A stretch of DNA of 64,000 bases from Methanobacteriota archaeon (GCA_019347805.1 JAHWKR010000003.1:1-64000), one strand, 5' to 3'. Positions 9,370 through 61,598 are shown, numbered from the stretch's first letter. Made by a program: numbers and translations. The notes: generated from the letters alone by a model not told the origin.

Positions 9370-9424
9370 GGGGACGAGGGGACGACGAGGCTCTGGCGCT
9401 GATAAGGGCGTCGGTGGACGGCGA

Positions 9425-26895: not shown

Positions 26896-26965
26896 CCGCT
26901 CGGACGCTCACTTCGCCGACAACTGCACGACCGCTCGGACGCTCACTTCGCCGACAACTGCACGA
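26896..26965. repeat. perfect 35-bp tandem duplication (x2) spanning the encapsulin stop codon
   Basis: ccgctcggacgctcacttcgccgacaactgcacga at 26896-26930 and 26931-26965. The second copy encodes the encapsulin C-terminus ...VQLSAK plus stop on the minus strand; the first copy repeats this in the 62-bp convergent intergenic space. Confidence 0.85.
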
Positions 26966-27749
26966 CCGCGTCCGGCTCGAGTACGCGGAACGTGAACGAC
27001 TCGGTGATGTAGAACTCCACTTGGTCCTTGTCGTGGTAGGCGTAGCCGACCGACAGGTCCTGTCCGACGGTGAGGATGAAGTCGCCGCCGCGTTGCGACA
27101 AGAGCAGACCGCCTTCCAGTCCGGGCGCCATGACGATGGGCCCATCGACGATCTGTCGTTCGATGTGCTTGCGGATGGGATATCCGCCTTCCCCGGCGAC
27201 GCGTGCCAGTTGGTTGTATTCCTTGACGCCGAGGGCGAGGGCGTAGGGTCCGGCGACGCCCGCTTCGCGCAGCTTGCCGGCCGCCTCCGCGATGGAGTCC
27301 GGATAGCCGGTGCCGTCCTTGGGCAGGCGGACCGGTTTGTGGCTGGAGGAATCGACGAGGCCTTTGATGCCCGCCTCGGGGTGTCCGTTGAAGATGGCGG
27401 AATCCTCGGCGAGGGCGATGCGTTTGGCCGCCTCGGCGACCGGTTCGAGGTGCGCCTCGGCGCCACGGGCGATGTAGTCGAGCTCGAGCATCGGCATGAC
27501 GATGGGGGTGCGGAACTCGACGAGGGGCTGCACCTGCCGGAGGCCGCCCTTGACGCCCTTGACGCGGTCCTTGTCGAAGAGCGCGAGCCGCCCGGTGTTG
27601 TAGGCGCTGTATTTCCAGCCGTGGGGTCCGTCGAAGTCGACGAGCTTGCGCGCGGCCAGGTAGACCTGGAACACGCTCTTCGCTTCCTGGTCGATCTGTT
27701 CCCACGCGTCTGGCGTGACAGGTGCGATGTTGCGTTTGAGGAGGTCCAT
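26943..27749 (-). CDS. encapsulin nanocompartment shell protein (family 1, HK97-fold)
   Basis: Start ATG at 27749: MDLLKRNIAPVTPDAWEQIDQEAKSVFQVYLAARKLVDFDGPHGWKYSAYNTGRL..., 268 aa, canonical encapsulin N-terminus and length. The 40-codon ORF-track extension overlaps the cargo gene. Confidence 0.85.
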   Translation of the reverse strand: MDLLKRNIAPVTPDAWEQIDQEAKSVFQVYLAARKLVDFDGPHGWKYSAYNTGRLALFDKDRVKGVKGGLRQVQPLVEFRTPIVMPMLELDYIARGAEAHLEPVAEAAKRIALAEDSAIFNGHPEAGIKGLVDSSSHKPVRLPKDGTGYPDSIAEAAGKLREAGVAGPYALALGVKEYNQLARVAGEGGYPIRKHIERQIVDGPIVMAPGLEGGLLLSQRGGDFILTVGQDLSVGYAYHDKDQVEFYITESFTFRVLEPDAVVQLSAK

Positions 27750-27753
27750 ATGA

Positions 27754-28248
27754 TCAGGTCCTGAGGCTGCGGATGCGGAGGGAGTGGTCTTCTTCGGTGT
27801 GCTTGTCGGACGCGGAGGCGTCCCGTTCGGCCCGGGCACCGGGCGCCTTGGCGGTATCTTCCGCGGCACCGTCTTCGCCGGTCGCCCCTTTCGCCTCTTC
27901 TTCGGCCCGCAGTATGGGCACGTCGGTGAAAAGGTAGGTGCGCATCTCGTGGTCGAACTCGGGACTTCTGCGGCGGATCCATTCCAAGGTCATCATGGCG
28001 TGCTCGATCTCCTCGTCCTTGTTGTGGCGGAGGATCTCGCGCAGCTCGTCGTCCGTGCAGCCGTCCATGCGTTGTTGGTACCAGTCGATGGCCTCGAGCT
28101 CCTCCATGAGGGAGACGATGGCGCGGTGCATCTCGCGCGTTTCGGCGGAGAGGACCTCGTAGGGTTCGTGGTACGTTTCGCTACCGATGGGGTCCACCCC
28201 GTGTCGTTCCCTGTCCGCGCATGTGCAGCGGGTGGCGACGACGGGCAT
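27754..28248 (-). CDS. encapsulated ferritin-like protein (EncFtn/Flp cargo) with C-terminal encapsulin-targeting peptide
   Basis: Ferritin-like di-iron motifs ETREMHRA and EEIEHAMMTLEW. The C-terminal tail ...HSLRIRSLRT matches the LxIxSLK/R cargo-loading peptide. The stop lies 4 nt before the encapsulin start. Confidence 0.75.
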   Translation of the reverse strand: MPVVATRCTCADRERHGVDPIGSETYHEPYEVLSAETREMHRAIVSLMEELEAIDWYQQRMDGCTDDELREILRHNKDEEIEHAMMTLEWIRRRSPEFDHEMRTYLFTDVPILRAEEEAKGATGEDGAAEDTAKAPGARAERDASASDKHTEEDHSLRIRSLRT

Positions 28249-31403: not shown

Positions 31404-32063
31404 TCAGGTGTCAATGTGCCCGCGATGCCAGGCGAGGACCGTGTCGGCGATGTCGCGGTGGTCGTCGATGCGCTCGAAGACGAGATCGGCGGCGTCACGC
31501 ACGGCAGGCCCGGTCGGTTCCACGGCGACGCCGAGGCCGATGTTCTTCCAGACACCGGTGTCGTTCACGTCGTTCCCGATATGGGCGACCCGCCGGGGGT
31601 CGACGTCCTCGCGTTGCAGGAAGGCGTGCAGGTTGCGCCACTTGTCGAAGAGGGGGCGCACTTCCCCGGTCACCACGCCATCGCGGACGACGCCGTGGGA
31701 GGCGATCTGGTCCTCGATGCCGAAGGCGTCGGCGAGGTGCGCGGTGATGAAGTCGGGGTTGTCTGTCAGGACGGCGACGCGCAGTCCGGCCTCCTTGAGC
31801 ATCGAGACGGCGGGTCCGATACCAGGGAACCAGGTGCCCTGCCGGAGCGCCTCGCGCACCTCGCCGACGGTGCGGCCGGCGAGGAAGGCGAACTCGATCT
31901 CGAAGCATTCCTCGAGGGTGATCTCGCCGCTGCGGAAGCGCTTGTCGTGGTGGAGCACCTCTTCCTCGAAGCCGAAATGGCGCGCCACGAGGAGGAACGC
32001 GGTGCCGTCGATGAGCGTTCCGTCGAGGTCGTAGCAGACGAGGTCGAGTCGGCCGTCGGCCAT
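31404..32063 (-). CDS. HAD-superfamily hydrolase (phosphoserine-phosphatase-like subfamily IB)
   Basis: Motif I DLDGTL; motif III/IV ...HIGNDVNDTG. Confidence 0.65.
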   Translation of the reverse strand: MADGRLDLVCYDLDGTLIDGTAFLLVARHFGFEEEVLHHDKRFRSGEITLEECFEIEFAFLAGRTVGEVREALRQGTWFPGIGPAVSMLKEAGLRVAVLTDNPDFITAHLADAFGIEDQIASHGVVRDGVVTGEVRPLFDKWRNLHAFLQREDVDPRRVAHIGNDVNDTGVWKNIGLGVAVEPTGPAVRDAADLVFERIDDHRDIADTVLAWHRGHIDT

Positions 32064-32214
32064 CGGGCCGCCGATGGGGCGGACCATCAGGTGCCTTTCG
32101 GTCCTGTCGTTCGGGTCTCATGTCGCCGTTCCGGGTTCTTCCGGTGCCGATGTCACATACCTGGCGTCGTCCCGACCGGAAGGCATAACGCTTCCGCCGC
32201 GGAATCCTGGTGTC

Positions 32215-32910
32215 ATGGGTCCCGACCGCGGCGTCGAGCCGCTTCCCGTGGTGCTCGTCCACGGCGTTCTCGGTCAGGAGCTCCTCTACTGGAACCTGGT
32301 CCGCGCCCGGCTGGAGACGGAGGGTTTCCAGGTCCTCGAGGCACCGCTTCCCCGCCTGGCCCTGGGTCGGTTGACCGATGCGGGCGTGGCGTTCGGCGAC
32401 ATCATCGACGCGCTCCTGGACGACGTCGGGGCGGAGCAGGTCGACGTCGTCGCCCATAGCGCGGGAGGCCTTGCGGTCCGCCATGCCCTCATGCAGGACG
32501 GGCACCGCGACCGGGTGCGACGGCTCATGACGCTCGGTTCGCCGCACGGCGGCACGCGGCTCGCCCATCTCGTGCCCGGCTTCGGCATCGCCGCGGACGT
32601 GCGGCCGGGCAGTCCGTTCCTGGCGCATTTCCTCGACGACCCGACCCCGGGGCCGACCTGCTACTCGGCGTTCTGGACCCGCTTCGACGGCATCGTCATC
32701 CCGAGCGAACTGGCGCGCCTGCCGTCGGCGCCGAACGTCGAGAACGTCCGGCTCGACCGGGTCAGTCATTGGGGGTATCTCTACAAGCCACGGGTGGCAC
32801 GGGTCTTGGCCGACGAGCTCCGACGCGGCTTCGTGGGCGGGGAGCGGGAGATCGTGAACGGCCTTTTCACACCGCGCTCCGGGACGGGCGCGGACGCGGT
32901 ACCGGCCTGA
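32215..32910 (+). CDS. alpha/beta-hydrolase, lipase/esterase-like
   Basis: VVLVHGVLG, nucleophile elbow AHSAGG, LGSPHGG; resembles small bacterial lipases. Start ATG at 32215. Confidence 0.55.
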   Translation: MGPDRGVEPLPVVLVHGVLGQELLYWNLVRARLETEGFQVLEAPLPRLALGRLTDAGVAFGDIIDALLDDVGAEQVDVVAHSAGGLAVRHALMQDGHRDRVRRLMTLGSPHGGTRLAHLVPGFGIAADVRPGSPFLAHFLDDPTPGPTCYSAFWTRFDGIVIPSELARLPSAPNVENVRLDRVSHWGYLYKPRVARVLADELRRGFVGGEREIVNGLFTPRSGTGADAVPA

Positions 32911-32985
32911 GAATGGCCTTGCAGCCGTCCGGTTGCCCACGTGGAACACCTATCTACGAGACTACCGTGCGCCGTCGTGACGCAC

Positions 32986-34866
32986 ATGGGTGCGGTCGGA
33001 GGTACTTGTTTGCGACGGATAGCGGTCATCTTACTGTCAGGCCTGTTGGCGATCACATTCTTCCCGACCCAGGGTTCCGCCCATGAGGGCGCCTTCCCGG
33101 TCGTCCTCCTTCATGGTTGGACGGGCGATGGCGACTCGTTCCGTGAGATGGTGCCGAAACTGGAGGCGCAGGGGCTCGCCGTCCTCGATTTCGACCCGGC
33201 GACCGCCGGGACCCAGGCGCTCAGCTACGGACCGATGGCGGCAGGTCAGCATGTCTCCTACATCGCGGGAAAGGTCGTGGAGGAGGCGATCCTGGACGCG
33301 CTCGCGGCGGCCGGTTATCCGGCGGACCAGAAGGTCGACGTCATCGCGCACAGCATGGGCGGTCTCGTGGCGCGGTTCCTCATCGAGCAGCCGGGTGCCG
33401 ACGTCGACCATTGGTCCGCCTCGAGCGGCTGGTACGGGGACGGGACCCCGGATGTCCGCTCCGATTGGGCGGCGCGCGTGGACGACCTCATCATGACCGG
33501 GACGCCGAACCATGGCACCTGGGAAGCGTGGGTGCCGAGCACGATCGGCGGCTTCGGTGACTGGAACGCGGCAGGTTCCGACATGGTGCCGGGGAGCACG
33601 TTCCTCGAGCGCATGGGCTACGCGGCGCCCTCCGGCGAGCACTATCATGCCATCGGCGGGGACCCGGCCTACCTGAACTTCCTCAAGTGGGACTACGACG
33701 GCGACGGGTTCTCCCGCGGGTTCGATGGTGTCGTCCCGGCCGAATCACCCTACGTCACGGGTGCGACGATCGACTACGTGGACGGCCATCATGGCGCGCT
33801 GCTTTCGGACGACGACGCGCTCGACCTCATCATCGAGTTCCTCGGACAGACGAGCGTCGTCGACGGGATCGGTGGCGCGTCCCTTGCCGGGGACGCCGTC
33901 GTCCGGCTCGAGTACCTCGATGTCGTGCAGGACCACGACGGCGGTTCGTCCGACGAGATGGTCGTGGACGTCTATGTCGATGCGGACGGATCCTTGGGAC
34001 CCGCTGGTTACACGAACGCGGGCCGGCACACGTTCTCCAAGGACGGTCCGTTCACGGTCGACTGGGGGGACACCGGTCCCACCTTCGCATCGGTCAAGGT
34101 CCCCGGTACGTCGCCCCTTCTGGATGTCAAGGTCGTGGTCCTGGAGGACGACACCTCGTGGGGTGGCGGCTACGAGGCCGTCTCGACGCACTACGTCACG
34201 AACATCCTCCTGTCGGAGGACATCGACGGCATGGATTTCTATGCCAAGGGGGCGACCGACTCGAAAGGCGGCACGAACACGGTGCGCGTCAGCGTCAACG
34301 GCGTGACAAGCGACGTCGGCGAGACGCGCGCGGTCGAACTCGGCCTCGAGAGATCCTACGTGAAGGACGACCACGACTGGGGCAAGGGCGAGGTGACCTA
34401 CTACCTGAACGCGGGCCGCGTCGGCTACACCTCGCAATACAGCCGGGGTGAGATCGGGGGCACCCACTATTCGCGTGACTCAGGGAGCTGGGTCGACATC
34501 GGGTCGCACAGCAAGAACGACGGCACCGTCGAGGCGGAGCTGGTGTGGTCGGGACGCATGCTGGAGGACGCGACGCTGCGCTTCGACGTGACCTATTGGG
34601 AGGACGATGGTGGTTGGAGCGGTGCGGACGGCGGCAACATGTACTACCTGGAAAAGTCGCTCGCACAGTTGTCTGACGGCACGTCGCGCTACAAGGGCAC
34701 GAGCCTGTCGGATTACGACGTCTACATCTCCGTCGTGAAGTACGGTCCCGGGGAATCGCCTGCGCTCCAGATGGTGGAGGAGATGGACGCTGTGGAGAAC
34801 CCTGTCGGTCTCCTGCCCGACGGTCCGGATGACCCACCGTTCGGACCGATGGACCCGCCGCTCTGA
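32986..34866 (+). CDS. secreted alpha/beta-hydrolase (lipase-like) with large C-terminal beta-rich domain
   Basis: Signal peptide, VVLLHGWTGDG, nucleophile elbow AHSMGG, then a ~400-aa Asp/Gly/Thr-rich C-terminal region. Confidence 0.55.
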   Translation: MGAVGGTCLRRIAVILLSGLLAITFFPTQGSAHEGAFPVVLLHGWTGDGDSFREMVPKLEAQGLAVLDFDPATAGTQALSYGPMAAGQHVSYIAGKVVEEAILDALAAAGYPADQKVDVIAHSMGGLVARFLIEQPGADVDHWSASSGWYGDGTPDVRSDWAARVDDLIMTGTPNHGTWEAWVPSTIGGFGDWNAAGSDMVPGSTFLERMGYAAPSGEHYHAIGGDPAYLNFLKWDYDGDGFSRGFDGVVPAESPYVTGATIDYVDGHHGALLSDDDALDLIIEFLGQTSVVDGIGGASLAGDAVVRLEYLDVVQDHDGGSSDEMVVDVYVDADGSLGPAGYTNAGRHTFSKDGPFTVDWGDTGPTFASVKVPGTSPLLDVKVVVLEDDTSWGGGYEAVSTHYVTNILLSEDIDGMDFYAKGATDSKGGTNTVRVSVNGVTSDVGETRAVELGLERSYVKDDHDWGKGEVTYYLNAGRVGYTSQYSRGEIGGTHYSRDSGSWVDIGSHSKNDGTVEAELVWSGRMLEDATLRFDVTYWEDDGGWSGADGGNMYYLEKSLAQLSDGTSRYKGTSLSDYDVYISVVKYGPGESPALQMVEEMDAVENPVGLLPDGPDDPPFGPMDPPL

Positions 34867-34957: not shown

Positions 34958-35830
34958 TCACAGGAACGGGTGTCCCCGCACCGAGAGCAGCCGTTGCAGT
35001 TCGTATTGGATGGCGGCGCGTACCCGGTCGTTCTCGCGATGGACGCGCTCGCTGTCCGCGGTGGCCTTCGGGTCCTTGCCGAGCTCGATGGGCTCGAGGA
35101 AGCTGATGCGCCATTTGGCGGGGCGCGGGAAGAAGTTGACCGGCATGGGGAGCGACAGGTCAAGAAGCTCCTCGTACGAGTCGATGCGCGCGCTCGAGGG
35201 GTTCGCCTCTTCGCCGCCGACGATGGCCACCGGGACGATGGGGGCGCCGGTCTCGAGCGCGACGCGGATGTAGCCGCGCGCGAAATCCTGCAAGAGGTAG
35301 CGTTCGTTCTGTCCTTTGAAGGCGCCGCGTTCGCCCTCGGGGAAGATGAGGATCGCTTCGCCGCGCTCGAGGAGCGTCCGCATGGTGTCCTTGCCGACCT
35401 CGAAGAGGCCCAATCGGGCGGCGAGGTCGCCGATCTGGGGTCTGCGGAACCAGGTCTTGTGGGCCAGTCCGCGCACGAAGCGCCCGCGGGCGTCCTTCAT
35501 GGCGAGCGCGGTGTAGGCGTAGTCGAGGCCGGTCCATCCGGTGTGGTTGGCGGCGAGGATGACGGGGCCGTCCGGCACACGCTCGATGCCTTCGACCTCG
35601 AGCCGGCTGTAGAGACGCAGGAGCTTGAAGAGCGGTGTGATGCGCGAGACGAAGGAGGGGTCGAGGCGGTCGTCGAGGTCGACCTCCCGGGTCGGCGAGG
35701 GCGTCTCGGGGCGTTCCGCTTGGTCGTGCGAGGTGGGAACGTGGGATGGGGCTCCGGTGGGCGTGCCGTTGGCACCGGGACGGGGCCGGTCCCGCGCCTT
35801 CGTCGCCTGCCTGCCTTCTGTCTTCTCCAT
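34958..35830 (-). CDS. PlsC-family acyltransferase (1-acyl-sn-glycerol-3-phosphate acyltransferase-like)
   Basis: Acyltransferase motif I NHTGWTGLD (HxxxxD) and motif III FPEGERG. ATG at 35830. Confidence 0.65.
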   Translation of the reverse strand: MEKTEGRQATKARDRPRPGANGTPTGAPSHVPTSHDQAERPETPSPTREVDLDDRLDPSFVSRITPLFKLLRLYSRLEVEGIERVPDGPVILAANHTGWTGLDYAYTALAMKDARGRFVRGLAHKTWFRRPQIGDLAARLGLFEVGKDTMRTLLERGEAILIFPEGERGAFKGQNERYLLQDFARGYIRVALETGAPIVPVAIVGGEEANPSSARIDSYEELLDLSLPMPVNFFPRPAKWRISFLEPIELGKDPKATADSERVHRENDRVRAAIQYELQRLLSVRGHPFL

Positions 35831-35920
35831 CGCGAGCGGGAACAGCCGGGGGCCTCCATATGGACTTTCCTGGCGCGGGTGATCGCGACGACAGACTCAC
35901 CAGCATGAGGACATATTGGC

Positions 35921-36841
35921 ATGGGTGAAACATGTCATATAGGTGGCCGCGGGAAATCCACCCGCGTGGTCCCAGGCGCCCCCAGGCGCACCTGGACCTT
36001 CCTGGCGTTCGCCGTCGTCGCGTCGATGCTGCTTTTCGCGGTCGGTCCGGCTTTTGCGGGGAACCATCAGGACAAGGGCCAGGGACGGTTCCGTGTCGAT
36101 GCCTTCACCGAGGTGCAGGTGACCGACGGGACCATCTCTCCGATCACAGTGGATCCCACCACCTCCGATCCCGGTCCTCGTGCGTTCGACAACATGGACC
36201 GGTTCCGTTTCAACACGCGCTACACGAACACGCGTCACGTCCTGTTCCTCGATGTACCGTCGGCGCAGACCGGCCAAGGGGCGTCGAGCCTCACCGTCCA
36301 GGGGGTCTCGCACCAGGTCGCGGATTGGATCCACATCCGGCAAGGCGGCGCCAGCGCGTTCGTGACGGTCGAACGCCAAGGGGTGTACGACAGTGATGCG
36401 GTTTCCTACACGGCACCAGGTGGGGCCACGCAGTCGAGCCAGGGTACGGTGGTCTTCAGGTCCTACGACAAGACGTCACCGAGCGATGGTGGGACGACGA
36501 GCACATGGTACTGGATCTATGATGCGGGACAGAACCGCTACTGGTTCGACCCCACGGACAAGGACTTCACCAACGGGAACGGTGAGGTGAGCGTCTGGCC
36601 GATCTCGAAATCGTCGGCGACCCACTACGTGTTCACCCATGGGACGAACACCTTCGGGGTGTCGGGTGTGGCGGGTTCGGCGACGGACTATGTCCCCACG
36701 GTCCGGCTCGGTTGGTTGGACCGCCCGGGACCGGGTGGGGGGCATGACCACGACGCCTATGTCCTCGTCGATTTTGCGAGCGGAACGCCTGCGGACACCT
36801 ATTCATACTCGGTACAGGGGACGATCTATGACACGGTGTAG
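35921..36841 (+). CDS. secreted protein, tandem paralog A of an uncharacterised family
   Basis: Signal RRTWTFLAFAVVASMLLFAVGPAFAG; mature protein is Thr/Ser/Gly/Tyr/Trp-rich and shares conserved blocks with the next two genes: V(Q/S)VTD.TI...T..P.TSDPGP, TNGNGE, DYVPT, AYVL(V/I)DF(A/P)SGTPADTY. Confidence 0.5.
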   Translation: MGETCHIGGRGKSTRVVPGAPRRTWTFLAFAVVASMLLFAVGPAFAGNHQDKGQGRFRVDAFTEVQVTDGTISPITVDPTTSDPGPRAFDNMDRFRFNTRYTNTRHVLFLDVPSAQTGQGASSLTVQGVSHQVADWIHIRQGGASAFVTVERQGVYDSDAVSYTAPGGATQSSQGTVVFRSYDKTSPSDGGTTSTWYWIYDAGQNRYWFDPTDKDFTNGNGEVSVWPISKSSATHYVFTHGTNTFGVSGVAGSATDYVPTVRLGWLDRPGPGGGHDHDAYVLVDFASGTPADTYSYSVQGTIYDTV

Positions 36842-37673
36842 GGAGACCCCTCTTGTCGTATCCAGACGGCGCAGGGCGCGCCCGACGCGGTGGAGCCGGA
36901 TCGCCATCGTCTTCCTTTTCCTGTTGCCGTTGTCGGCCTCACCGGGTCTGGCATTGCTCGATGTCTCTGTGACGGACGCGACCGTCGCGCAGGTGACCGC
37001 GACACCGACATCGAGCGACCCGGGCCCGGTCCTCCATTCCGCGGCGGACGGGCTCGAGTTCTCGAGCGGCCTGACGGATATCGCCGCGGCGTGGTATGCC
37101 GAATACTCGCTGGTGACGAACAACACGTCCGCCCAGGGCGCGACCGTCCAAGGCGTATCCCATACCTTCGCGGACTGGTTCTATGCCAAGCAGGACGACA
37201 ATCCGAAGTATTCGACGATGAACGTCACCGGGGTGTACGACGCGGACGCCGCGGCCTACACCGTGCCGTTGCTGTTCACCAAGTCGTCCCAAGGTACCCT
37301 CGCGCTGCGTTGGTACAACGGCACTTCCCCCACGTCTGGTGGGACGGATGTGACGATGTATTGGGCCTATGACGCGGTGGAGAACAAGTATGTCATCGGC
37401 GCCTCGAAGGACCTGTCCCTCGAGACCCAGGTCGCGCCGATCACGGCGACGCTCCAGACGACCTATGAGCGAACGATCCAAGGCAACGACTATATCGTGA
37501 AAAGCGTCGCCGCCGCCGGCTCCGATTATGTCCCCACCCTCATGCAGGGCCACCATCTGCCGCTCGTCTCCTTGCCACTCAGCCACACCTGGTATCCGCT
37601 CATGGACCCGCCGCCCGGCGTCCTGCAGGACGATTACGACTTCACGCTCCGCGTCACCGTGGTGGCGATCTGA
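36828..37673 (+). CDS. secreted protein, tandem paralog B
   Basis: Start ATG at 36828 overlaps paralog A by 14 nt. Signal RRRRARPTRWSRIAIVFLFLLPLSASPGLA; same blocks (SVTDATVAQVTATPTSSDPGP...). Confidence 0.5.
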   Translation: MTRCRETPLVVSRRRRARPTRWSRIAIVFLFLLPLSASPGLALLDVSVTDATVAQVTATPTSSDPGPVLHSAADGLEFSSGLTDIAAAWYAEYSLVTNNTSAQGATVQGVSHTFADWFYAKQDDNPKYSTMNVTGVYDADAAAYTVPLLFTKSSQGTLALRWYNGTSPTSGGTDVTMYWAYDAVENKYVIGASKDLSLETQVAPITATLQTTYERTIQGNDYIVKSVAAAGSDYVPTLMQGHHLPLVSLPLSHTWYPLMDPPPGVLQDDYDFTLRVTVVAI

Positions 37674-37836
37674 GGTGCGGGTCGTGGTCCGTCAGATCAT
37701 GTCGTGTGTTGCCGTGGCGACCATGGTTCCGGTCGCTCGGGGTCACCGCTGACGGCCCTTTCGGACGACGCTTCGTCGTCTCCTCTTCTGAGGACGTCTG
37801 AAAGCAGGGGTTTGTCGACTTCCCCGCGGCTTCGAG

Positions 37837-37852
37837 GATGCAGACGAAGGTT
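37837..37852 (+). promoter_or_regulatory. putative archaeal BRE/TATA promoter element (aaggttgatatatcga), copy 1
   Basis: AT-rich 16-mer inside a GC-rich spacer, ~60 nt upstream of ATG 37914; identical 16-mer at 42165. Confidence 0.4.
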
Positions 37853-37913
37853 GATATATCGAACGAGGAAAGTGACCGCTGTCCCGACCGGGTGGGTCGT
37901 CAGGAGATCAGCC

Positions 37914-38828
37914 ATGCACACCAAAAACGGCGTCGAACGGTCCTGCCGTCGCCTTTTCTCATCGCCCAAGAGCAGCTTGACGTTCCTCATGGCCCTCGCC
38001 ATCGCCTTCGGGCTGGCCCTCGCTCCGGCGACCCATGCGGCGACGAGTGGTACCGGGACGGTCTCGGCCACGGTGGGTAAGTTCGTCGAACTGTCCGTGA
38101 CGGACGCCACGATCGCCGCGTTCAGCGCCAGTCCGACCTCGAGCGACCCCGGGCCGGTGGTCAAGGACAACACCGACCATTTCCGTTTCTCGAACGTCTT
38201 CTCGAACACGCGCGCGATGTTCAGCATGGACATCACCTCCGCGACGGACGGTTCCGCATCCGCGACGAAGACGATCCAGGGCACGACACACACCATCGCC
38301 GATTGGGTCTACCTGCGCCAGGACGCGAACCAGAAGTATGGCACCTATGAGACGACCGGCGTCTACGACGCCTCCGCCGCCTCCTATACTGCGCCCGGTG
38401 GTTTCACCAAGGACTCCCAAGGGACCTTCCAGATCAAGACCTACGACAAGGACAGCCCCACCGACGGCGGCGACAGCACGATCACGGTCAACTGGATCTA
38501 TGAATCGGCTGGCAACCGCTACTATTTCGACGCCGTCGACAAGGACTTCACGAACGGCAACGGCGAGGCCCAGGTCAATCCGTCCTCGAAGACGGACCAG
38601 GCTTCGGGATACACCTACACCGCAGGGACCAACGCTTATGGTGTCACTTCGGTCGCGAACTCGGGCAGCAATTATGTGCCGACCGTGCGCATGGCGTGGC
38701 AGGTCGACTATTCGACCGCGGCGTCCGTCACGAAGGATGCCTACGTGCTCATCGATTTCCCGAGCGGCACTCCGGCGGACACCTACAGCATCACCTTGAC
38801 CGCCACGGTCACGCAGTTGACGTCGTGA
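37914..38828 (+). CDS. secreted protein, tandem paralog C
   Basis: Start ATG at 37914; signal LTFLMALAIAFGLALAPATHAA; blocks SVTDATIAAFSASPTSSDPGP, TNGNGEAQV, NYVPTVRM, AYVLIDFPSGTPADTYSITL. Preceded by the TATA-like motif at 37837. Confidence 0.5.
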   Translation: MHTKNGVERSCRRLFSSPKSSLTFLMALAIAFGLALAPATHAATSGTGTVSATVGKFVELSVTDATIAAFSASPTSSDPGPVVKDNTDHFRFSNVFSNTRAMFSMDITSATDGSASATKTIQGTTHTIADWVYLRQDANQKYGTYETTGVYDASAASYTAPGGFTKDSQGTFQIKTYDKDSPTDGGDSTITVNWIYESAGNRYYFDAVDKDFTNGNGEAQVNPSSKTDQASGYTYTAGTNAYGVTSVANSGSNYVPTVRMAWQVDYSTAASVTKDAYVLIDFPSGTPADTYSITLTATVTQLTS

Positions 38829-38886
38829 GGGCGTAGGACCCGGCGGGAACGATCGGGCACGGTCGACCGTCGGGACGAGGTCGACC

Positions 38887-40827
38887 ATGTCCCCACAACA
38901 TCGTCCGGCGCATCGGCCCCTGGCGCGACGCCAGGGCGGAGCGCCCGGACGGCGTGTCGCTTTCGCCTTCGTCCTCTTCCTCTTCTTCGGAGCCCTCGGA
39001 CTCGGTGTGCTCCCACCGACCCAGGCCCAGATCGGCACCACTCCAGGTAAGGTCGACGCGGGTCCATTGGTTCGCGGGGCGACCGCGACGGCGACCTTCG
39101 AGGTGCGCAACGGTGGCACGGAGGCGATCACCGTCGACCTTTCGACCGAGGGCGACCCGTATGGTGCCCTCACGGTCAGCCCGACCGAGGCGACCGTCGC
39201 GGCTGGCGGCACGACGACGATCACGGTGACCATCCATGTGCCCGCGAGCGCCGCACCGGGCCGCCACGAAGTCTCCGTCGTCGCCGCGGAGCGCCCCGAG
39301 CGGTCGGGCAACACGGCGTTCGCCGCCGCGCGGACGACGGTGGTCTATACGGTCGCGGCCGCCGACCTCGCCTATCTCGATGTGCTCGCTGACGGCACGG
39401 TGGTGAGCAGGCTGGTGAACGGCCACGGGACGGAACGGACGATGGACCTCCATGTGCGGACCTCGTCCAGTGGCTCGACGGTGCAGACGCTTCATGGTGC
39501 ACCTGCGTCCGTGGCGGCGGGCGCGTCGCATTTCCACGGACTCGTCCTCAATCCTTCTGCCCATGCCGAGGGGCCGTACACGCTCGCCGTGAACGGCACG
39601 GTGACCGGCGGCGATGGGCCCGTGACCTGGAGCCGGACCTATGCTCTCACCCGCACGTCGTCCGGCTTCATGCGCGGGAACGTCACTTCTTCGTCCGCGC
39701 CCAGTGGGGGCGGAGGGGGCGGAGGTGGAGGCGGCGGAGGGGGCGGTGCACCACCCACCACCCCGGATGTGAAGCACGAGAACAAGACACCGCTTCCCAC
39801 GACCAAGGTCTTCCAGCAGACCGTGACCGGGGTCGCCACACCACAAGGTACGACCTACACCTCCACATCCCAGACCCTTCGTGCGAACGACGTCCTCGCG
39901 GTCTCCGTCCTGGACGCCACCATCGAAGAGGTGCGCCTCGAGGTGCGACAGGATGTGGAAGATGCGCGTCTTGTCTTCACCGACCACACGACACCCCCGG
40001 AAGCGACCGACCTCCCTTCGACGGTCGGGTTCGCGCGGCATTTTCAGATCAAGGCCTACGACGGTGATGCGCTGCTCCCGAACGACGCTCTCGAACGGGT
40101 CCTCTTCCGTTTCGTGTTGGAGTCGGACGCGCTCGCCGAGGGCGGGCTCGACCCGGACGATGTCGTCCTGGTGCACGAGTTCCCGGGCCATGGCTGGTTC
40201 GACGAGCCGACGCGCTACAGCGTCGCACCGGACGGTCGGTACAGCTTCGAAGCGGAGATGCGGAGCCTGAGCGTCTTCGCCGCGGTCGACCGGAACACGG
40301 TCCCTGAGGCGTTCGTCACTCCGGCGCCGGGCGAGACGGGGTCGTCGCGCGACGTCGTGCCGCCGCGCGTCCTTGCTTTCGAGCTCCCCGAGGGGCCGCT
40401 CGAGGGGCCGGTCGACATCCGGTTCGTCGCCGAGGATCCTTCCGGTCTTGGTTCGGTGGTGCTTTTCGTCGATGATCGGCGCCAGACCAAGGTGCGTGCA
40501 CTGGATGGTCTCCTCGAGTTCGACACGACGCTGCTCACCGACGGCGCCCACACGTTCCACATCGTCGTCACCGATGGCGCGGGCAATCCAGCGAAGAGCG
40601 AGCGGCTCGAGCGGACGGTGCAGAACGATGCCGTCGTCCCTCCCGCTCCCGAAGTGTCGACATGGGCGGCGGCCATCATCATGGTGGTGACCTCATTCGT
40701 CTCGTTCGCCCTCTTCGTCGCGACCGGCTGGGTCTGGCACAAGGTGCGTCGGCCGAAGCGGTCGCGGCGCGGCGGGTCTGAGGAGCCCCGTCCGATGCCC
40801 GGGACCCTGGCAGACGAGGGACGTTAG
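38887..40827 (+). CDS. large cell-surface protein with C-terminal TM anchor and Arg-rich tail
   Basis: Signal peptide; N-terminal beta-sandwich-like domain (GKVDAGPLVRGATATATFEVRNGGTEAITVDL...); Gly14 linker (coding run gggggcggaggg... at ~39700-39760); C-terminal TM ...AAIIMVVTSFVSFALFVATGW followed by KVRRPKRSRRGG. Confidence 0.55.
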   Translation: MSPQHRPAHRPLARRQGGAPGRRVAFAFVLFLFFGALGLGVLPPTQAQIGTTPGKVDAGPLVRGATATATFEVRNGGTEAITVDLSTEGDPYGALTVSPTEATVAAGGTTTITVTIHVPASAAPGRHEVSVVAAERPERSGNTAFAAARTTVVYTVAAADLAYLDVLADGTVVSRLVNGHGTERTMDLHVRTSSSGSTVQTLHGAPASVAAGASHFHGLVLNPSAHAEGPYTLAVNGTVTGGDGPVTWSRTYALTRTSSGFMRGNVTSSSAPSGGGGGGGGGGGGGGAPPTTPDVKHENKTPLPTTKVFQQTVTGVATPQGTTYTSTSQTLRANDVLAVSVLDATIEEVRLEVRQDVEDARLVFTDHTTPPEATDLPSTVGFARHFQIKAYDGDALLPNDALERVLFRFVLESDALAEGGLDPDDVVLVHEFPGHGWFDEPTRYSVAPDGRYSFEAEMRSLSVFAAVDRNTVPEAFVTPAPGETGSSRDVVPPRVLAFELPEGPLEGPVDIRFVAEDPSGLGSVVLFVDDRRQTKVRALDGLLEFDTTLLTDGAHTFHIVVTDGAGNPAKSERLERTVQNDAVVPPAPEVSTWAAAIIMVVTSFVSFALFVATGWVWHKVRRPKRSRRGGSEEPRPMPGTLADEGR

Positions 40828-40864
40828 CGCAGCCTTTAGGAGTGGAAGCGCGCCATCCGCGCCC

Positions 40865-42097
40865 ATGGCCCGTCCCTCGGCCGTCGCCCTGGCCCTGACC
40901 CTCCTCGTGGGGCTCTTCGTCGTCCCGACCATCCATGCCGACCTTGGTGTGGACCGTCAGACGTTCCAGTTGGGTAAGGTCGACCCGGGTCTTGAGACGG
41001 TGCGCTTCGTCAATGTCACGAACAAGGGCACGAGCGAGACTTCGGTCGTCGCGCAGGTGGAGTGCGCCTGTGACAGGTGGGTGACGGTGGAGCCTGGTTC
41101 GTTCACGCTCGCTGCCGGAGCCACCCAGCAAGTACGGCTCGAGGTCGCGGTCGGTCTGGAACCGGACCCTGGTATCCACGATTATGATGTCCGCTTCACC
41201 GAGGTGACGGATGCAGCGAGCGGGGGGACGGCGAAAGGGGCCATCGGCGTCAAGCTCAACTTCTTCGTGCGGACAGCCGGTCTTTTCCTCACGCACACCG
41301 GCGCCCAGGGGGAGACGCTCTACGATTTGGCCGACGACGGCACGTTCGGGTTCAACCTGGTCAACGGGTTCGAGGAGGGGCTCGACGTCACGGTCTCCGG
41401 CGCGGTCTCCAGGGACGGCGACTCCTATGAGGTCGGTCCGGTACGTTTCGATGCGGAACCTGGAGGCGACGCGGCATCCTCCAACCGGCACCGTGTCCAG
41501 ACCGGGATCACGCCCGATTCGGAGCCAGGGATCTATGAGCTGCGGTTGATGGCCGAGTGGTCGAACAAGGAGACCGGGGAGACGGGCTCGGTCGGTCCGC
41601 GCACGGTCCACATCAACATCGGCACTTCGGCGGAGCTGAGGGATTTCACCGCCACGGTCGAAGGCGACGCGGTCCGCTTCACTGGCACGATCGTCAACAC
41701 GGGCGGCACGACCATCGAGGCACGTATGGTGGTCGAGGTGCGCGAGGGCGGGAACCCAGACCTGTCACGGCTCGAGAGCGACCTCGTCACCATCGCCCCG
41801 GATGGCGAGAACACGCGTGACCTGCTGTGGGAGAACGCCCGGGAGTCGACATACTCGGCGACCGCTTATGCTGTTTTCAAGACCGCAGGGGAGGGAAGTG
41901 CCTTCTTCGCCGAAGGCCCAAGGAGCGGCGAGACGGGCTTTGTCGTCGGTGACCCTGAGGCCGACGGGTCGCCCGAGGGGACGGAGGGCCCTGCCGACGA
42001 CGGACGCGACTTGACGACGACGATCCTGGTCGCTGCGGGTGTCGGACTTCTGGTGGGCGCCGCGGTGGCGTTCGTGGCGCTGCGAAAACGGGGATGA
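40865..42097 (+). CDS. cell-surface protein with C-terminal TM anchor (paralogous N-domain to 38887..40827)
   Basis: Signal peptide; N-domain LGKVDPGLETVRFVNVTNKGTSETSVV resembles the N-domain of the previous gene; C-terminal TTTILVAAGVGLLVGAAVAFVALRKRG. Confidence 0.55.
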   Translation: MARPSAVALALTLLVGLFVVPTIHADLGVDRQTFQLGKVDPGLETVRFVNVTNKGTSETSVVAQVECACDRWVTVEPGSFTLAAGATQQVRLEVAVGLEPDPGIHDYDVRFTEVTDAASGGTAKGAIGVKLNFFVRTAGLFLTHTGAQGETLYDLADDGTFGFNLVNGFEEGLDVTVSGAVSRDGDSYEVGPVRFDAEPGGDAASSNRHRVQTGITPDSEPGIYELRLMAEWSNKETGETGSVGPRTVHINIGTSAELRDFTATVEGDAVRFTGTIVNTGGTTIEARMVVEVREGGNPDLSRLESDLVTIAPDGENTRDLLWENARESTYSATAYAVFKTAGEGSAFFAEGPRSGETGFVVGDPEADGSPEGTEGPADDGRDLTTTILVAAGVGLLVGAAVAFVALRKRG

Positions 42098-42164
42098 ACC
42101 GCCTCGCCACCCGCGACATTGTCGACCGGTGCATCCGGCCCCTGCCCTGACGACACTCGCCCGT

Positions 42165-42180
42165 AAGGTTGATATATCGA
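42165..42180 (+). promoter_or_regulatory. putative BRE/TATA promoter element (aaggttgatatatcga), copy 2
   Basis: Exact copy of the 16-mer at 37837, ~95 nt upstream of ATG 42274. Followed by the direct half-repeats ccaaggttccc / cccaagggttgcc. Confidence 0.4.
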
Positions 42181-42273
42181 CCCTATCCAAGGTTCCCTTT
42201 CCCAAGGGTTGCCATGAGGATCTGACGGGTCCGAAGATCCGGCCTCCCGGTATTCCGACGACTGGCGGCGATC

Positions 42274-42867
42274 ATGATTCCTTTACTGGCGATACAAGGC
42301 GGCGGGGCGCTCCTGGTGATGTCCGGATGGCTCACTTTCTTGGCCAGCCGCTTTGAACTCGGACCGGTGTCGACGCTCGTCGCGGCGATGGGCCCCTTGC
42401 CTTTCTTGTCGTGGATCTTCTCGTCTTTTGTCGTGGGGATCGTACTGGTCGTGGCAGCGTCCCGACCGGGGACGGCTCGACATCAGGTCCGCTATGCGAC
42501 CGGTAGCACGTTACTGGCGTCAGCCGCAGAAGCGCGGACCGCCACGTCAACACGATCTGGCGCAGGTTCTCTGAACGACCCTTCGGCGGCGCTCCGGGTC
42601 TTCGAACGGGTCATGGCCGGCTCCATGCAGACGGTCCCCAACGGTGACACGTCGTTCGACATGGATCTCAAGGACATGGACCGGACATCTTCCGCGATCG
42701 AGCGCCGGATCGCGGACACAAAGATCCGTTTCGCCCTCGGCAAGATCTCGGTGGAAGCCTACCACCAGGAGATGGACACCTTGGACATCGAGTGGCGTCG
42801 CGCCCTCGGCCTCGTCGAACTGCGCGGACGACACGCGGGCGCCGATCTGATCCGGCCTCGGACGTAG
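42274..42867 (+). CDS. 2-TM membrane protein with C-terminal SHOCT-like domain
   Basis: Two N-terminal TM helices. The C-terminus RFALGKISVEAYHQEMDTLDIEWRRALGL resembles the SHOCT motif (GxIxxEEYxxxkxxL). Confidence 0.45.
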   Translation: MIPLLAIQGGGALLVMSGWLTFLASRFELGPVSTLVAAMGPLPFLSWIFSSFVVGIVLVVAASRPGTARHQVRYATGSTLLASAAEARTATSTRSGAGSLNDPSAALRVFERVMAGSMQTVPNGDTSFDMDLKDMDRTSSAIERRIADTKIRFALGKISVEAYHQEMDTLDIEWRRALGLVELRGRHAGADLIRPRT

Positions 42868-45708
42868 GTGTCCGGGACCGAAAGCTCATCAAGGCGACCC
42901 CGGCTCCCCCGGTCCGTGCGCCCCGGCACGCTGGTCGAGTTCAAGGACGGCCTGTTCGGCATCAAGGCCCCGCAGAACCTGGCGGTCTTCCTGGAGCGGA
43001 AGAAGCGAAAGAAGGATTTTTTCGTCGTCCTGCACACGGTGAAGGGGCGGAGGGAGGTCAAACCGCAGCAGGTCTCGGGCCGTCGTTTCACGGTCGAGGT
43101 CGACCCGGGTCTCGACGAGGAGGAGATGACGGCGCGGCTGAAGGCGCTCATGCAGGAGGCGACAGGCGGGACGTTCGAGGAGAAGCGGGGCTCGGAGGGG
43201 GAGTTGGACGAGCGCACGGTCTGGGAGCGCGTGGTCGGCAAGCTCGACGGCCCGGCGTCGGTGGAGGACGTCGCACGGGCGTGGCAGGGCGAGGAGCCGA
43301 CGAAAGGCGACGTGCGGCGCATGGGCGAGATGCTGGAGCGTTGCAAGCGCACCGGTGTCGGGTTCTTCGAAAGGCGGGAGCGGGGCCGTTGGGAGCCCAT
43401 CCCTGTGGCGGCGATGAAGGGCTTCCACGCCGCCATGGAGGCGGCCAATCGTTTGCGCAAGCGGCTCGTTCGGACCGTGGTGGTGGAGGACGATTCTGGG
43501 GAACCGTGGGAGCGGTTGGAGGGTGTGCCGATCGCTGCCGTCGAGTTGGAGGACGAGGAGCGAACGTTACTCGAGGCGTTCGTCGACGGCATGGAACGGT
43601 TCGTCCTGCATGACCAGTGGCCGGACGACGTCACGCCGCCCGGTGTGCCGGTGCACACGCTCCTTGGCCAGGGGTGGCATCGTTTTCTCGAATGGTTGGC
43701 GCGCGATTGGACGGGTGCCCAGCAGGTCACCGTCTCGTCGGCGATGGTGCAGTTCCTCGTCGACTCCGGGATGCGCACCACACAGGACACCATCCGGCTT
43801 ATCGCGCGCCGCAAGGTGCTCGCGGCCCCCGATTTCGATTGGGAGACGCCGGAGGAGATCGAGCGGTGGGCGGAGCGGTATCGTGAACCGGCCGTGGAGG
43901 CGTCGTCTGACCCGTCGTTCTACACCGTGCGGAGCGACCTGCGCGAACTGGAGACGTACACCATCGACCCGCCGGACGCCAAGGACTTCGATGACGCCGT
44001 CTCGCTCATCCGGCACGACGATGGCGCGGCGACGCTCTGGGTGCACATCGCGGATGTCTCCCATTATGTCGAGAAGGATTCACGGCTCGACCATCATGCC
44101 AGACGGCGGGCGACATCGGTCTACCTGCCGACCGGCGTCCTGCCCATGCTGCCCCATCGGCTCTCCGACGACCTTTGTTCGTTGCGCGAGAAGGTCGACC
44201 GGCTCGCCATGTCGGTGCGGCTCGAGATCGACCCGGCCGGGGACGTCGTGGCGTGGGAGCCGTGCGAGGCGGTCATCCGGGTCGACCGCAACCTTTCCTA
44301 TGGCGAGGTGGACCGCATGGTGGCAGACGGTGTGGAGCCGTTCGCGGGCCTCGAGGCGCTCGCGCGGCTCATGGGGACGCGCCGCAAGGGGCTCGACATC
44401 GAGACCGGCGAGTTGCGCATCCGGTTCGCCGAATCGGAGGCGATGCGTGTCGCGCGACGCGAGGGCCTGGAACCGGAGTCGGTGCCGGAACCCGCCGAGG
44501 CGACCCCTGCGCTGGAGGAACCGCCGGAGGACGATGTCGGGCTTTCCATCCAGATCAAGCGCAGCTCACCGGCGACGCGCATGATCGAGCAGTTCATGGT
44601 GGCGGCCAACGAGGCGGTGTCGCGCTTCGTCCATGGCGCCGACGTCGCGGTGCCCTATCGCTGCCATCCGCTTCCCGAGCGCGCCAAGGCGGAGCGGTTG
44701 AACGGCCAGGCCAAGACGATGGGTCTCGAGGTGCGCATCGATCTTCCCGAAGAGAGCGGAGGATCGGACGAGGCCGACGAGGACGCGGAAGAGGAAGAGT
44801 CGGGCCCGAGCATCCTGGACCAGTTGAAGGGCGGGAAACTGCAGCTCGGCGGTTTCGCGGCGACCGAGACGCTCGGCAAGAAAGAGGCGAAGGACGCAGA
44901 GGACGAAGAGGCAGAAGAGGAGGCGGACCTGGCACCGGCCATCCGCGGTCTCGCGCAACTTTCTGCGGAGGAACGCGCCGCTTGGCTGCGGCCGTTCCGG
45001 GCCGCGCTCGAGGTGGTCGAGGGCATCAAGGACGAACGCATGCGCGACCTTGCCTACTTCAAGGTGCTCTCGTCGCTCGGGCGCGCGTTCTACACGCCGC
45101 GCAACCTCGGCCACTTCGGGCTCGGGTCGACGAGTTATGCGCACTTCACGAGCCCCATCCGGCGTTATCCCGACCTCGTGCTGCATCGCCAGTTGCGCTG
45201 GGTGTTGCGGAAGGACAAAGGTCTTGATGTGTCCCAGGAACCGCCGCACATGGCCGCCTATCTCGAAGACCTCTGCGCCCACTCCAGTGCGCAGGGGGAA
45301 CGCGCGGAGCGCTTGGAACGCGACATCCTCTCCTGTTGTCTCACGTTCGAGTCACGCCGCCAGGAATGGAGCGGGGCGCTCGGTGGCATCGTGAGCGGCG
45401 TGACCGCCGGGGGTGCCTTCCTGACGCTTCCGGGCAACCTCGAGGCACGGGTCGCGGTGCGCGACATCCCCGGCGGGCCCTACGAGGTCGACGAGTATGA
45501 CTCGATGCTCTTCAAGGCGCGCTTCGGCGGGGACAACGTCGAGGAGGAGGAGCTTGATCTCCCGCTCGATTGGCGCGAGATGGAGGACCCCGCGACGGGC
45601 GAGATCCGTGAGGTTCGGCTCAAGCTCGGCGACCGCCTGCCGGTCACCATCTCGGAGCGGGATTTCGTCGACGGGAAGGTGCGGGTACGGTTGACATCGG
45701 GCGGATAG
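42868..45708 (+). CDS. rnr: RNB-domain 3'-5' exoribonuclease, RNase R/RNase II family, with ~300-aa N-terminal extension
   Basis: RNB catalytic core ...YTIDPPDAKDFDDAVSLIRHDDG..LWVHIADVSHYV......SVYLPTGVLPMLP..LSDDLCSL; C-terminal S1-like region with an acidic insert. GTG at 42868 directly abuts the upstream TAG; the true start may be an internal Met. Confidence 0.75.
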   Translation: MSGTESSSRRPRLPRSVRPGTLVEFKDGLFGIKAPQNLAVFLERKKRKKDFFVVLHTVKGRREVKPQQVSGRRFTVEVDPGLDEEEMTARLKALMQEATGGTFEEKRGSEGELDERTVWERVVGKLDGPASVEDVARAWQGEEPTKGDVRRMGEMLERCKRTGVGFFERRERGRWEPIPVAAMKGFHAAMEAANRLRKRLVRTVVVEDDSGEPWERLEGVPIAAVELEDEERTLLEAFVDGMERFVLHDQWPDDVTPPGVPVHTLLGQGWHRFLEWLARDWTGAQQVTVSSAMVQFLVDSGMRTTQDTIRLIARRKVLAAPDFDWETPEEIERWAERYREPAVEASSDPSFYTVRSDLRELETYTIDPPDAKDFDDAVSLIRHDDGAATLWVHIADVSHYVEKDSRLDHHARRRATSVYLPTGVLPMLPHRLSDDLCSLREKVDRLAMSVRLEIDPAGDVVAWEPCEAVIRVDRNLSYGEVDRMVADGVEPFAGLEALARLMGTRRKGLDIETGELRIRFAESEAMRVARREGLEPESVPEPAEATPALEEPPEDDVGLSIQIKRSSPATRMIEQFMVAANEAVSRFVHGADVAVPYRCHPLPERAKAERLNGQAKTMGLEVRIDLPEESGGSDEADEDAEEEESGPSILDQLKGGKLQLGGFAATETLGKKEAKDAEDEEAEEEADLAPAIRGLAQLSAEERAAWLRPFRAALEVVEGIKDERMRDLAYFKVLSSLGRAFYTPRNLGHFGLGSTSYAHFTSPIRRYPDLVLHRQLRWVLRKDKGLDVSQEPPHMAAYLEDLCAHSSAQGERAERLERDILSCCLTFESRRQEWSGALGGIVSGVTAGGAFLTLPGNLEARVAVRDIPGGPYEVDEYDSMLFKARFGGDNVEEEELDLPLDWREMEDPATGEIREVRLKLGDRLPVTISERDFVDGKVRVRLTSGG

Positions 45709-57574: not shown

Positions 57575-57727
57575 GCCGGGGACCAGGCGGTCGCCTCTTC
57601 TTCCGGTTTTTGTCGCCGCCCCGGGTCCCGCCGCGCTTTTCCTCTTCTGTCGGGGAGGCCGGACCCTCCAAATGCTCATATACGATGGTACCGGTCTTGA
57701 GCCGCCGGCCGCGGTGGCGGCCAGGAG

Positions 57728-61507: not shown

Positions 61508-61598
61508 CGACAGGCCGCTTACCGAAGTCGGCTCGCCTCGGCGACAGAACGCTTTTCAACATGGTGTCGGATGCCCTTGTCCGGGGTGCGTCCCCAGG

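Follow-up and report, generated by a model that had tools for sequence, protein, structure and literature searches.

A conserved module of paralogous secreted beta-sandwich proteins and Ig-like membrane anchors in an uncultivated archaeon, possibly a tafi-like surface fibre system

What do three tandem genes for secreted proteins of no recognised family build, together with the genes for two membrane-anchored proteins that follow them? This question is raised by positions 35921-42867 of a 64,000-nucleotide stretch of DNA from a Methanobacteriota archaeon (GCA_019347805.1, JAHWKR010000003.1:1-64000; the whole stretch is hereafter called the window). A first-pass annotation had described the locus as a candidate cell-surface assembly locus containing three secreted paralogs, two anchored surface proteins, a SHOCT-like membrane protein and a shared promoter element. 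We report here that the locus contains a conserved, lineage-restricted module, which consists of three or four paralogous Sec-secreted beta-sandwich proteins and membrane-anchored immunoglobulin (Ig)-like stalk proteins. The module is tafi-like in architecture and is a member of no known family by sequence or close structure. The explanation that we tentatively prefer, with somewhat less than even confidence, is an extracellular structural module that builds a heteropolymeric surface fibre analogous to the tafi of haloarchaea.

The paralogs A (KY455_01400, 35921-36841), B (KY455_01405, 36828-37673) and C (KY455_01410, 37914-38828) are all encoded on the plus strand. Translation bore out the three same-strand open reading frames (ORFs) and the 14-nt overlap between A and B described in the first-pass annotation; in the NCBI record, A starts 15 codons further in (291 aa). 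Third-position GC supported these gene models and those of the two anchor genes downstream, Ig4 and Ig5. The identity is 36% between A and B and 46% between A and C, and the full range among the three proteins is 36-46%. The blocks VTD..TI, PT.SDPGP, NGNGE, YVPT and AYVL.DF.SGTP.DTY are common to the paralogs. Thus, the proposed paralogy and common blocks are visible in the alignment, except that B lacks the NGNGE block and its C-terminal block has diverged. A single hydrophobic stretch lies at the N-terminus of each paralog, with a small-x-small site directly behind it (AFA↓G for A, GLA↓L for B and THA↓A for C), and we conclude, in agreement with the first-pass annotation, that A, B and C carry predicted cleavable Sec-type signal peptides. 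Export by the Tat pathway was rejected, as orthologs do not retain the RR pairs of the n-regions. In mature form, the proteins are 26-28 kDa in size (A, ~28 kDa), acidic (pI 4.3-5.0), Cys-free and rich in Ser, Thr, Ala and Gly. B contains four N-glycosylation sequons (N-x-S/T), and A and C contain none. The proteins do not resemble type IV pilins or archaellins: an A-x-A-type site comes after the hydrophobic segment, the N-terminus of the mature protein is polar and conserved, and no hydrophobic helix is kept in mature C, which models as all-beta.

The three types differ in how the mature protein starts. C-types start with AT[ST]GTG[ST]V, A-types with ..GQG.F.V and B-types with a strand of the form (L/V)(L/V)(D/E)V.V.D. 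The mature N-terminus of C in the window is ATSGTGTVSA, which is conserved even in a distant clade, and C-like proteins with AT[ST]GTGSV were found in L004, P0020 and P0024 (loci and family members are given as L and P numbers, respectively). The N-terminal extension of A is GNHQDKGQGRFRVDAF. Mature B begins directly at LLDVSVTD, so that the ~15-aa N-terminal extension of A and C is missing, and B-types are without this extension in every clade (window, L001, L002, L007 (P0016), L016 (P0017), L015 (P0018), L004 (P0021) and L008). The family-wide alignment contains one invariant residue, G170. Since only this Gly is invariant across the family, a structural rather than a catalytic role is suggested, and an enzyme as the leading explanation was rejected on the same ground.

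The architecture of a paralog trio clustered with an Ig-like protein with a transmembrane (TM) segment is conserved in at least eight loci. The A-B-C-Ig arrangement was seen in five further metagenome assemblies. L001 and L002 have the same three orthogroups, again arranged as A-B-C, and the triplication thus predates the divergence of these genomes. In L014 and L016, A-B-C is followed by an Ig4-type gene with a poly-Gly run, whereas L015 has B and then C. In L007, A and B overlap by 4 nt and the upstream neighbour differs. A-type orthologs of the window's A are present in L001, L002, L007 and L014, and B-type orthologs were found in other loci. Close relatives of the window also have unrelated flanking genes in common (HAD, hydrolase, acyltransferase and RNase R), so that synteny among close relatives is by itself weak evidence. 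Accordingly, the more distant loci, in which the paralogs are only ~25-30% identical or match at E 1e-4, carry the decisive weight. In L004 and L005, the order is a C-like gene (ATSGTGSV start), a gene for a 368-aa Ig anchor (signal peptide, ASH domain and C-terminal TM segment), an A-like gene, a B-like gene and a degenerate fourth paralog, and the stop and start codons of the A-like and B-like genes overlap. L008 encodes a B-like protein, an Ig-TM protein and a fourth paralog type. In L006, the gene for the most distant member, P0023 (E 1e-4), is directly followed by an Ig gene of the HYDIN/ASH type, which is truncated at the end of the contig.

These arrangements bear on the simplest alternative, namely that the adjacency has no functional meaning and that unrelated surface proteins lie together through shared ancestry only. 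Most of the syntenic loci also have unrelated flanks in common, which reflects close relatedness and fits this explanation. However, the adjacency persists through rearrangement in L004/L005, L008 and L006, where the flanks are wholly different, and L001 keeps both Ig4 and Ig5 despite two genes inserted between them. We regard adjacency without meaning as very improbable. The first-pass annotation had held that scattering of the genes in related genomes would speak against a dedicated locus; instead, the link between paralogs and Ig proteins holds in distant relatives. Because the adjacency survives rearrangement and a change of flanks, gene order speaks for the paralogs and the Ig5-type anchor as one functional unit.

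Two features set the distant clade (L004 1565-5245, L005 5096-5809 and L008 6402-7097) apart. Its paralogs have two conserved Cys (..CG.. and Y.VCD), which are missing in the clade of the window, and it includes a fourth, truncated paralog type (P0025-P0027) without the VTD...DPGP block.

No match to A, B or C was found in Pfam or NCBIfam (E<=0.1) or in PHROGs, and the family profile had no matches among PDB sequences, even at E<=10. When 14 diverse family members were compared singly with Pfam at E<=10, no recurrent family and no carbohydrate-binding module (CBM), lectin or enzyme model appeared. Thus, as the first-pass annotation had supposed, the paralogs, as judged from these profiles, are not part of any characterised family of enzymes or transporters. 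Among 5.8 billion proteins, a word-indexed search yielded 15 relatives; a profile search with HMMER, run exhaustively over 1.84 billion cluster representatives, yielded 10, and a second profile search yielded four further relatives. Species genomes in GTDB, metagenome contigs from JGI and viral contigs from IMG/VR were scanned as well and contained no relatives. The family is, by these searches, very rare and lineage-restricted. A phage origin was rejected, as there was neither a PHROGs match nor a viral contig.

C was modelled with AlphaFold2 (AF2) from an alignment of 17 sequences. The model had a mean predicted local distance difference test (pLDDT) value of 79.6, with residues ~100-260 above 90, and contained ~18 beta-strands. 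The core of the paralogs is thus modelled as a beta-sandwich of ~240 residues. Foldseek detected no match in the PDB with E below 0.03. The best structural neighbours, though weak, were subunits of fibres assembled by donor-strand exchange. One of these is TLP-1b, a fibril from pond water whose subunits polymerise through donor-strand exchange (CryoSeek TLP-1a/b, PDB 9IKJ/9IKK; PMC11494351); the likeness of the C model to TLP-1b is a resemblance and not membership.

The N-terminal part of C behaves differently from the core. Residues 61-80 (SVTDATIAAFSASPTSSDPG) are among the most conserved (0.70-0.82) and have a pLDDT of only 51-55, and residues 41-60 have a conservation of ~0.6 and a pLDDT of 30-34. 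The first ~40 mature residues are therefore highly conserved yet unpacked in the monomer model. An arm that contacts the adjacent subunit would be expected to behave in this way, conserved but not packed on its own core. The same conserved-yet-unpacked behaviour of an arm was noted for TafA by the authors of the tafi study (PMC11821415).

The fold by itself would also suit a different function. A, B and C may be soluble secreted binders or enzymes (lectin-like, CBM-like or polymer-degrading), with the Ig-TM neighbours as cooperating adhesins and with no polymer formed. Lectins and CBMs often have beta-sandwich or jelly-roll folds, and both occur among the low-probability Foldseek matches of the C model, and secreted DUF7379/PGAP1-like hydrolases are encoded nearby in the window, in L001 and L002 and in the distant L008. 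However, no set of catalytic or ligand-binding residues is conserved across the family, the permissive Pfam comparison gave no model of these kinds, and the persistence of three or four kinds of paralog, with a fixed layout of the N-terminus, is hard to explain in this way. We consider soluble binders or enzymes improbable.

The genes for these secreted alpha/beta hydrolases (DUF7379/PGAP1-like/lipase-2 type) are found shortly before the module in the window (32035-32910 and 32941-34866, plus strand), in L001 (3176-3919) and in L002 (6234-6962). In L008, such a gene is located 1.7 kb from the module (8766-10325, minus strand). They may be a further component or a coincidence.

The two large proteins downstream of C are Ig4 (KY455_01415, 38887-40827, plus strand, 646 aa) and Ig5 (KY455_01420, 40865-42097, plus strand, 410 aa). 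Both carry a signal peptide and end in a C-terminal TM segment with a basic tail. In Ig4, a linker of exactly 14 Gly (residues 274-287; window 39706-39747) is followed by further beta domains, and the cytoplasmic tail is rich in Arg and Lys. Ig5 consists of three tandem Ig/FN3-like domains, followed by a linker that is acidic and disordered and by a C-terminal TM segment with RKRG at its end; its first domain is HYDIN_VesB_CFA65-like/ASH, of the PapD-like clan. The N-terminal domains of Ig4 and Ig5 are homologous (29% identity over 178 aa, E 2e-7), and the anchored pair with homologous domains, basic tails and a Gly14 linker was thus confirmed. These domains match the Ig_VWA7, HYDIN_VesB_CFA65-like, ASH and choice-of-anchor-D models at or near threshold, and the assignment to the PapD-like clan is generic, since FN3 domains score equally well. 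The AF2 model of Ig5 rests on 3 sequences and has a pLDDT of 66.

Orthologs of Ig4 were found in L001 and L002 and partial orthologs in L014 and L016. The partial orthologs have runs of 8-10 or more Gly after SGGSG (L014 3186-3932; L016 2500-3354). Because the poly-Gly run is conserved in orthologs, it is a selected flexible hinge and no assembly artefact, and we propose Ig4 as a membrane stalk or anchor. One or two such anchored Ig-like proteins are encoded next to the paralogs throughout. By BLAST, every Ig partner is homologous to the others; two orthogroups, Ig4-type and Ig5-type, occur in the close clade, and a single Ig5-like copy occurs in the distant clade. Thus, the type kept beside the paralogs in every clade is the Ig5-type. 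Despite the layout of linker, TM segment and basic tail, neither Ig4 nor Ig5 matched the PGF-CTERM model of archaeosortase substrates. The sole sorting-type match was PGF_pre_PGF at 0.031, inside Ig4, and the C-termini of the Ig orthologs contain no common motif.

B and C are separated by 240 bp, C and Ig4 by 58 nt, and Ig4 and Ig5 by 37 nt. The last two spacers are GC-rich and without obvious signals, for which reason C, Ig4 and Ig5 are probably co-transcribed as one transcript, and A and B are a separate, tightly coupled pair. The spacer upstream of C contains the 16-mer AAGGTTGATATATCGA at 37847-37862 (plus strand), 52 nt upstream of the C start codon, and AGGAG is located ~9 nt before the ATG of C. 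The 16-mer is AT-rich and near-palindromic, with the 12-bp centre T(T/C)GATATATC(G/A)A. This copy is probably the TATA/B recognition element (BRE) region of the C promoter; as its centre is nearly palindromic, the element could also be a regulator site. The only other exact copy in the window lies at 42165-42180 (plus strand), 94 nt upstream of a 197-aa ORF (42274-42867, plus strand). Two exact copies are far above chance (0.03 expected), and the shared element of the first-pass annotation is therefore real. However, the 16-mer was not found in L001 or L002 and is no conserved part of the system. The likeness of the two promoter regions stops beyond 16-17 bp. A general promoter consensus was rejected, as relaxed searches of the window returned only the same two copies. 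In L001 and L002, a long AT-rich spacer is retained upstream of the C ortholog, which suggests that C has a promoter of its own.

The 197-aa ORF had been described as a SHOCT-like membrane protein belonging to the locus. It encodes N-terminal hydrophobic segments and has a pI of 9.8. At E<=0.1 it matched no Pfam family, including SHOCT (PF09851), and NCBIfam gave only a spurious weak match. The gene model is uncertain; NCBI annotates only an 84-aa product here (KY455_01425). In L001, L002 and L013, this gene is missing from the interval that separates the Ig5 ortholog from RNase R. Because both the ORF and the 16-mer are missing in the relatives examined, they are specific to this genome, and the comparison of loci places the ORF probably outside the conserved module. 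We therefore set this part of the first-pass description aside. The whole segment 42098-42867, from Ig5 to RNase R, is absent in L002 and L013, and it has the appearance of an insertion, specific to the lineage, with a copy of the C promoter core inside.

None of the window genes encodes a signal peptidase, an archaeosortase, a secretion ATPase or type IV pilus machinery, in line with the first-pass annotation, which had recognised neither a signal peptidase nor a pilin signature. In particular, there is no SipW-type (S26B) peptidase and no [ST]GSMxP motif among them. In L006, a membrane protein with an ESGSM motif is encoded ~0.9 kb upstream of P0023 (4730-5599, plus strand) and has a sub-threshold match to TIGR02228 (sigpep_I_arch; E 6e-6, 26 bits against a cutoff of 51.85). 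L006 is the only locus with a hint of a dedicated peptidase near a family member.

How might such a module work? In the surface fibre that we prefer, A, B and C would be exported and cleaved by signal peptidase I. The conserved, unpacked N-terminal ~40 residues of one subunit would then insert as a strand into the next subunit (donor-strand exchange, as in tafi, ABP/threads, TasA and cannulae), and the three paralogs would polymerise into a fibre through these arms. C, with its own promoter, would be the major repeating subunit, and this promoter would probably also drive Ig4 and Ig5. A, translationally coupled to B, would be a minor or adaptor subunit, and B, without the distal N-terminal extension, would cap one end of the polymer as a cap or tip. 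The membrane-distal N-terminal Ig domains of Ig5 and Ig4 would hold or terminate the polymer at the membrane, in a role like that of TafF.

Several observations weigh against this fibre. B keeps an FVEISVTD-like strand, and if that strand is the donor, the argument for a cap fails. The Ig anchors show no relation to the paralogs when their profiles are aligned (hhalign probability, 1.4%), unlike TafF, and the idea that they are diverged, TafF-like subunits was rejected on this result. The window contains no dedicated signal peptidase, usher or sortase-like gene. Further, most of the syntenic loci are those of close relatives, and independent support comes from three distant contexts.

Some of the same observations would suit a coat that is not filamentous. 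A, B and C may form a hetero-oligomeric canopy or lattice (S-layer- or sheath-like) above the membrane on Ig4 and Ig5 stalks, for which the SlaA/SlaB arrangement of Sulfolobales is a parallel. The paralogs are constantly accompanied by stalk-like Ig proteins with an acidic-disordered or Gly-rich linker and a C-terminal TM segment, the composition of the mature proteins (acidic, Cys-free, and rich in Ser, Thr, Ala and Gly) and the lack of assembly machinery in the window are compatible with a coat, and a promoter of its own for C fits high expression. However, subunits of 26-28 kDa are small for S-layer proteins, neither Pfam nor NCBIfam gave an S-layer or surface-layer domain match, and the family is far too rare and patchy for the general envelope of a lineage. 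A conserved unpacked N-terminal arm, together with a paralog without part of it, is more typical of polar polymers. A coat is thus unlikely in our judgement, although it deserves more weight than soluble binders, and we retain the fibre as the preferred explanation.

The rest of the window contains housekeeping genes and assorted secreted proteins. The G+C content is 63-72% across the 64-kb window, with the first 2 kb as the exception, and no Rfam RNA family was found in 35000-43500. The adjoining gene (42868-45708, plus strand) encodes a full-length RNase R/RNB exoribonuclease of 946 aa with an acidic insertion. Its nearest species-representative relative, from an uncultured Thermoplasmatales metagenome-assembled genome, is only 46% identical, which indicates that the host belongs to a poorly sampled archaeal lineage; the host is possibly an uncultivated archaeon allied to Thermoplasmatota. 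Three further features of the window were noted. First, an encapsulin shell gene (Linocin_M18, E 3e-87) lies directly downstream of an EncFtn-like cargo gene (E 2e-41) at 26943-28248 (minus strand), a classic encapsulated-ferritin pair. Second, a full-length bacterial-type phosphoenolpyruvate carboxylase (PF00311) is encoded in this archaeal contig at 54038-56722 (plus strand). Third, two adjacent genes (57701-61507 and 61422-62798, plus strand) encode PKD-domain proteins with homologous C-terminal domains of ~170 aa (34% identity, E 1e-22) and a near-identical terminal tail, CS.(D/E)Y.F(F/L)NVG, which could be a shared sorting or attachment module.

How does the module compare with known systems? 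Chaperone-usher pili (Fim, Pap and Csu) differ from it in that the archaeon has no outer membrane or usher; no usher-like gene is present, and Ig5 is a membrane-anchored protein of three domains, whereas the PapD chaperone is soluble and has two. The first-pass annotation had likened the locus to TasA/camelysin or AbpA. TasA of B. subtilis, AbpA and the threads of Sulfolobus are secreted beta-sandwich or jelly-roll subunits that donate an N-terminal strand without a chaperone-usher system and form matrix or bundling fibres (PMC9674648, PMC9245690, PMC9715654). For A, B and C, we propose the same mechanism. The weak structural neighbours of C, which are subunits of fibres of this kind, support the comparison in part. 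However, A, B and C matched neither the Peptidase_M73 (TasA/camelysin) nor the ABP (AbpA) sequence model in Pfam, the C model showed no close similarity to the jelly-roll of TasA or AbpA, and no SipW-type peptidase is adjacent. Further, those systems have one major subunit, in contrast to the conserved trio with Ig-TM partners here. We therefore replaced this comparison with that of a tafi-like architecture.

Tafi consist of three secreted beta-sandwich subunits (major, adaptor and tip) and a protein with a C-terminal TM segment, which is proposed to anchor or end the fibre (PMC11821415, PMC12337348). A cluster of this type, with a subunit trio and a C-terminal-TM anchor, is what we found, as an architectural analogy only. 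Like tafi and the tafi-like DUF1102 clusters of Thermococcales and Archaeoglobales, the module encodes several paralogous secreted beta-sandwich subunits and a C-terminal-TM anchor. The AF2 monomer models have a disordered N-terminal arm in both, and the tafi-like clusters of non-halophiles have Sec signal peptides, as here. Tafi clusters also include a small 2-TM protein, although the 2-TM gene of the window is not conserved. The subunits of tafi are smaller (~180 aa, compared with ~260 aa for the mature proteins here), the window has no TafD-type signal peptidase or TafG, and the TafF anchor carries a pilin-like domain, whereas the Ig anchors have no subunit-like domain. Neither the sequence nor the fold of TafA/TafE/DUF1102-type pilins was detected in the paralogs.

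In archaea, the recognition of surface filaments that rely on strand donation and need no chaperone-usher system is recent. To our knowledge, the classes known so far (ABP/threads, CanA cannulae and tafi) were all found in cultured members of the Thermoproteota or Euryarchaeota. For strand-donation pili in archaea, a published count gives three classes (PMC12337348). A bolder reading, which we hold to be doubtful, is that A, B and C represent a fourth class, with a new ~240-residue beta-sandwich fold, a fixed trio of major subunit, adaptor and cap, and membrane-anchored Ig proteins of the PapD-like clan as both assembly platform and anchor, in a few uncultivated lineages possibly allied to Thermoplasmatota. 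If the module formed only a surface coat, it would still be a cleanly delimited, syntenic orphan family missed by current domain databases. If it is a fourth class, the principle of strand donation would reach into a deep uncultivated lineage and a new subunit fold would be added to those of the known classes. Such a module, with membrane anchors and three types of subunit, of which one is naturally without the distal N-terminal arm, would then be a simple genetic system in which to ask how the order of a polymer and its attachment to the membrane are set where there is neither an outer membrane nor a dedicated peptidase.

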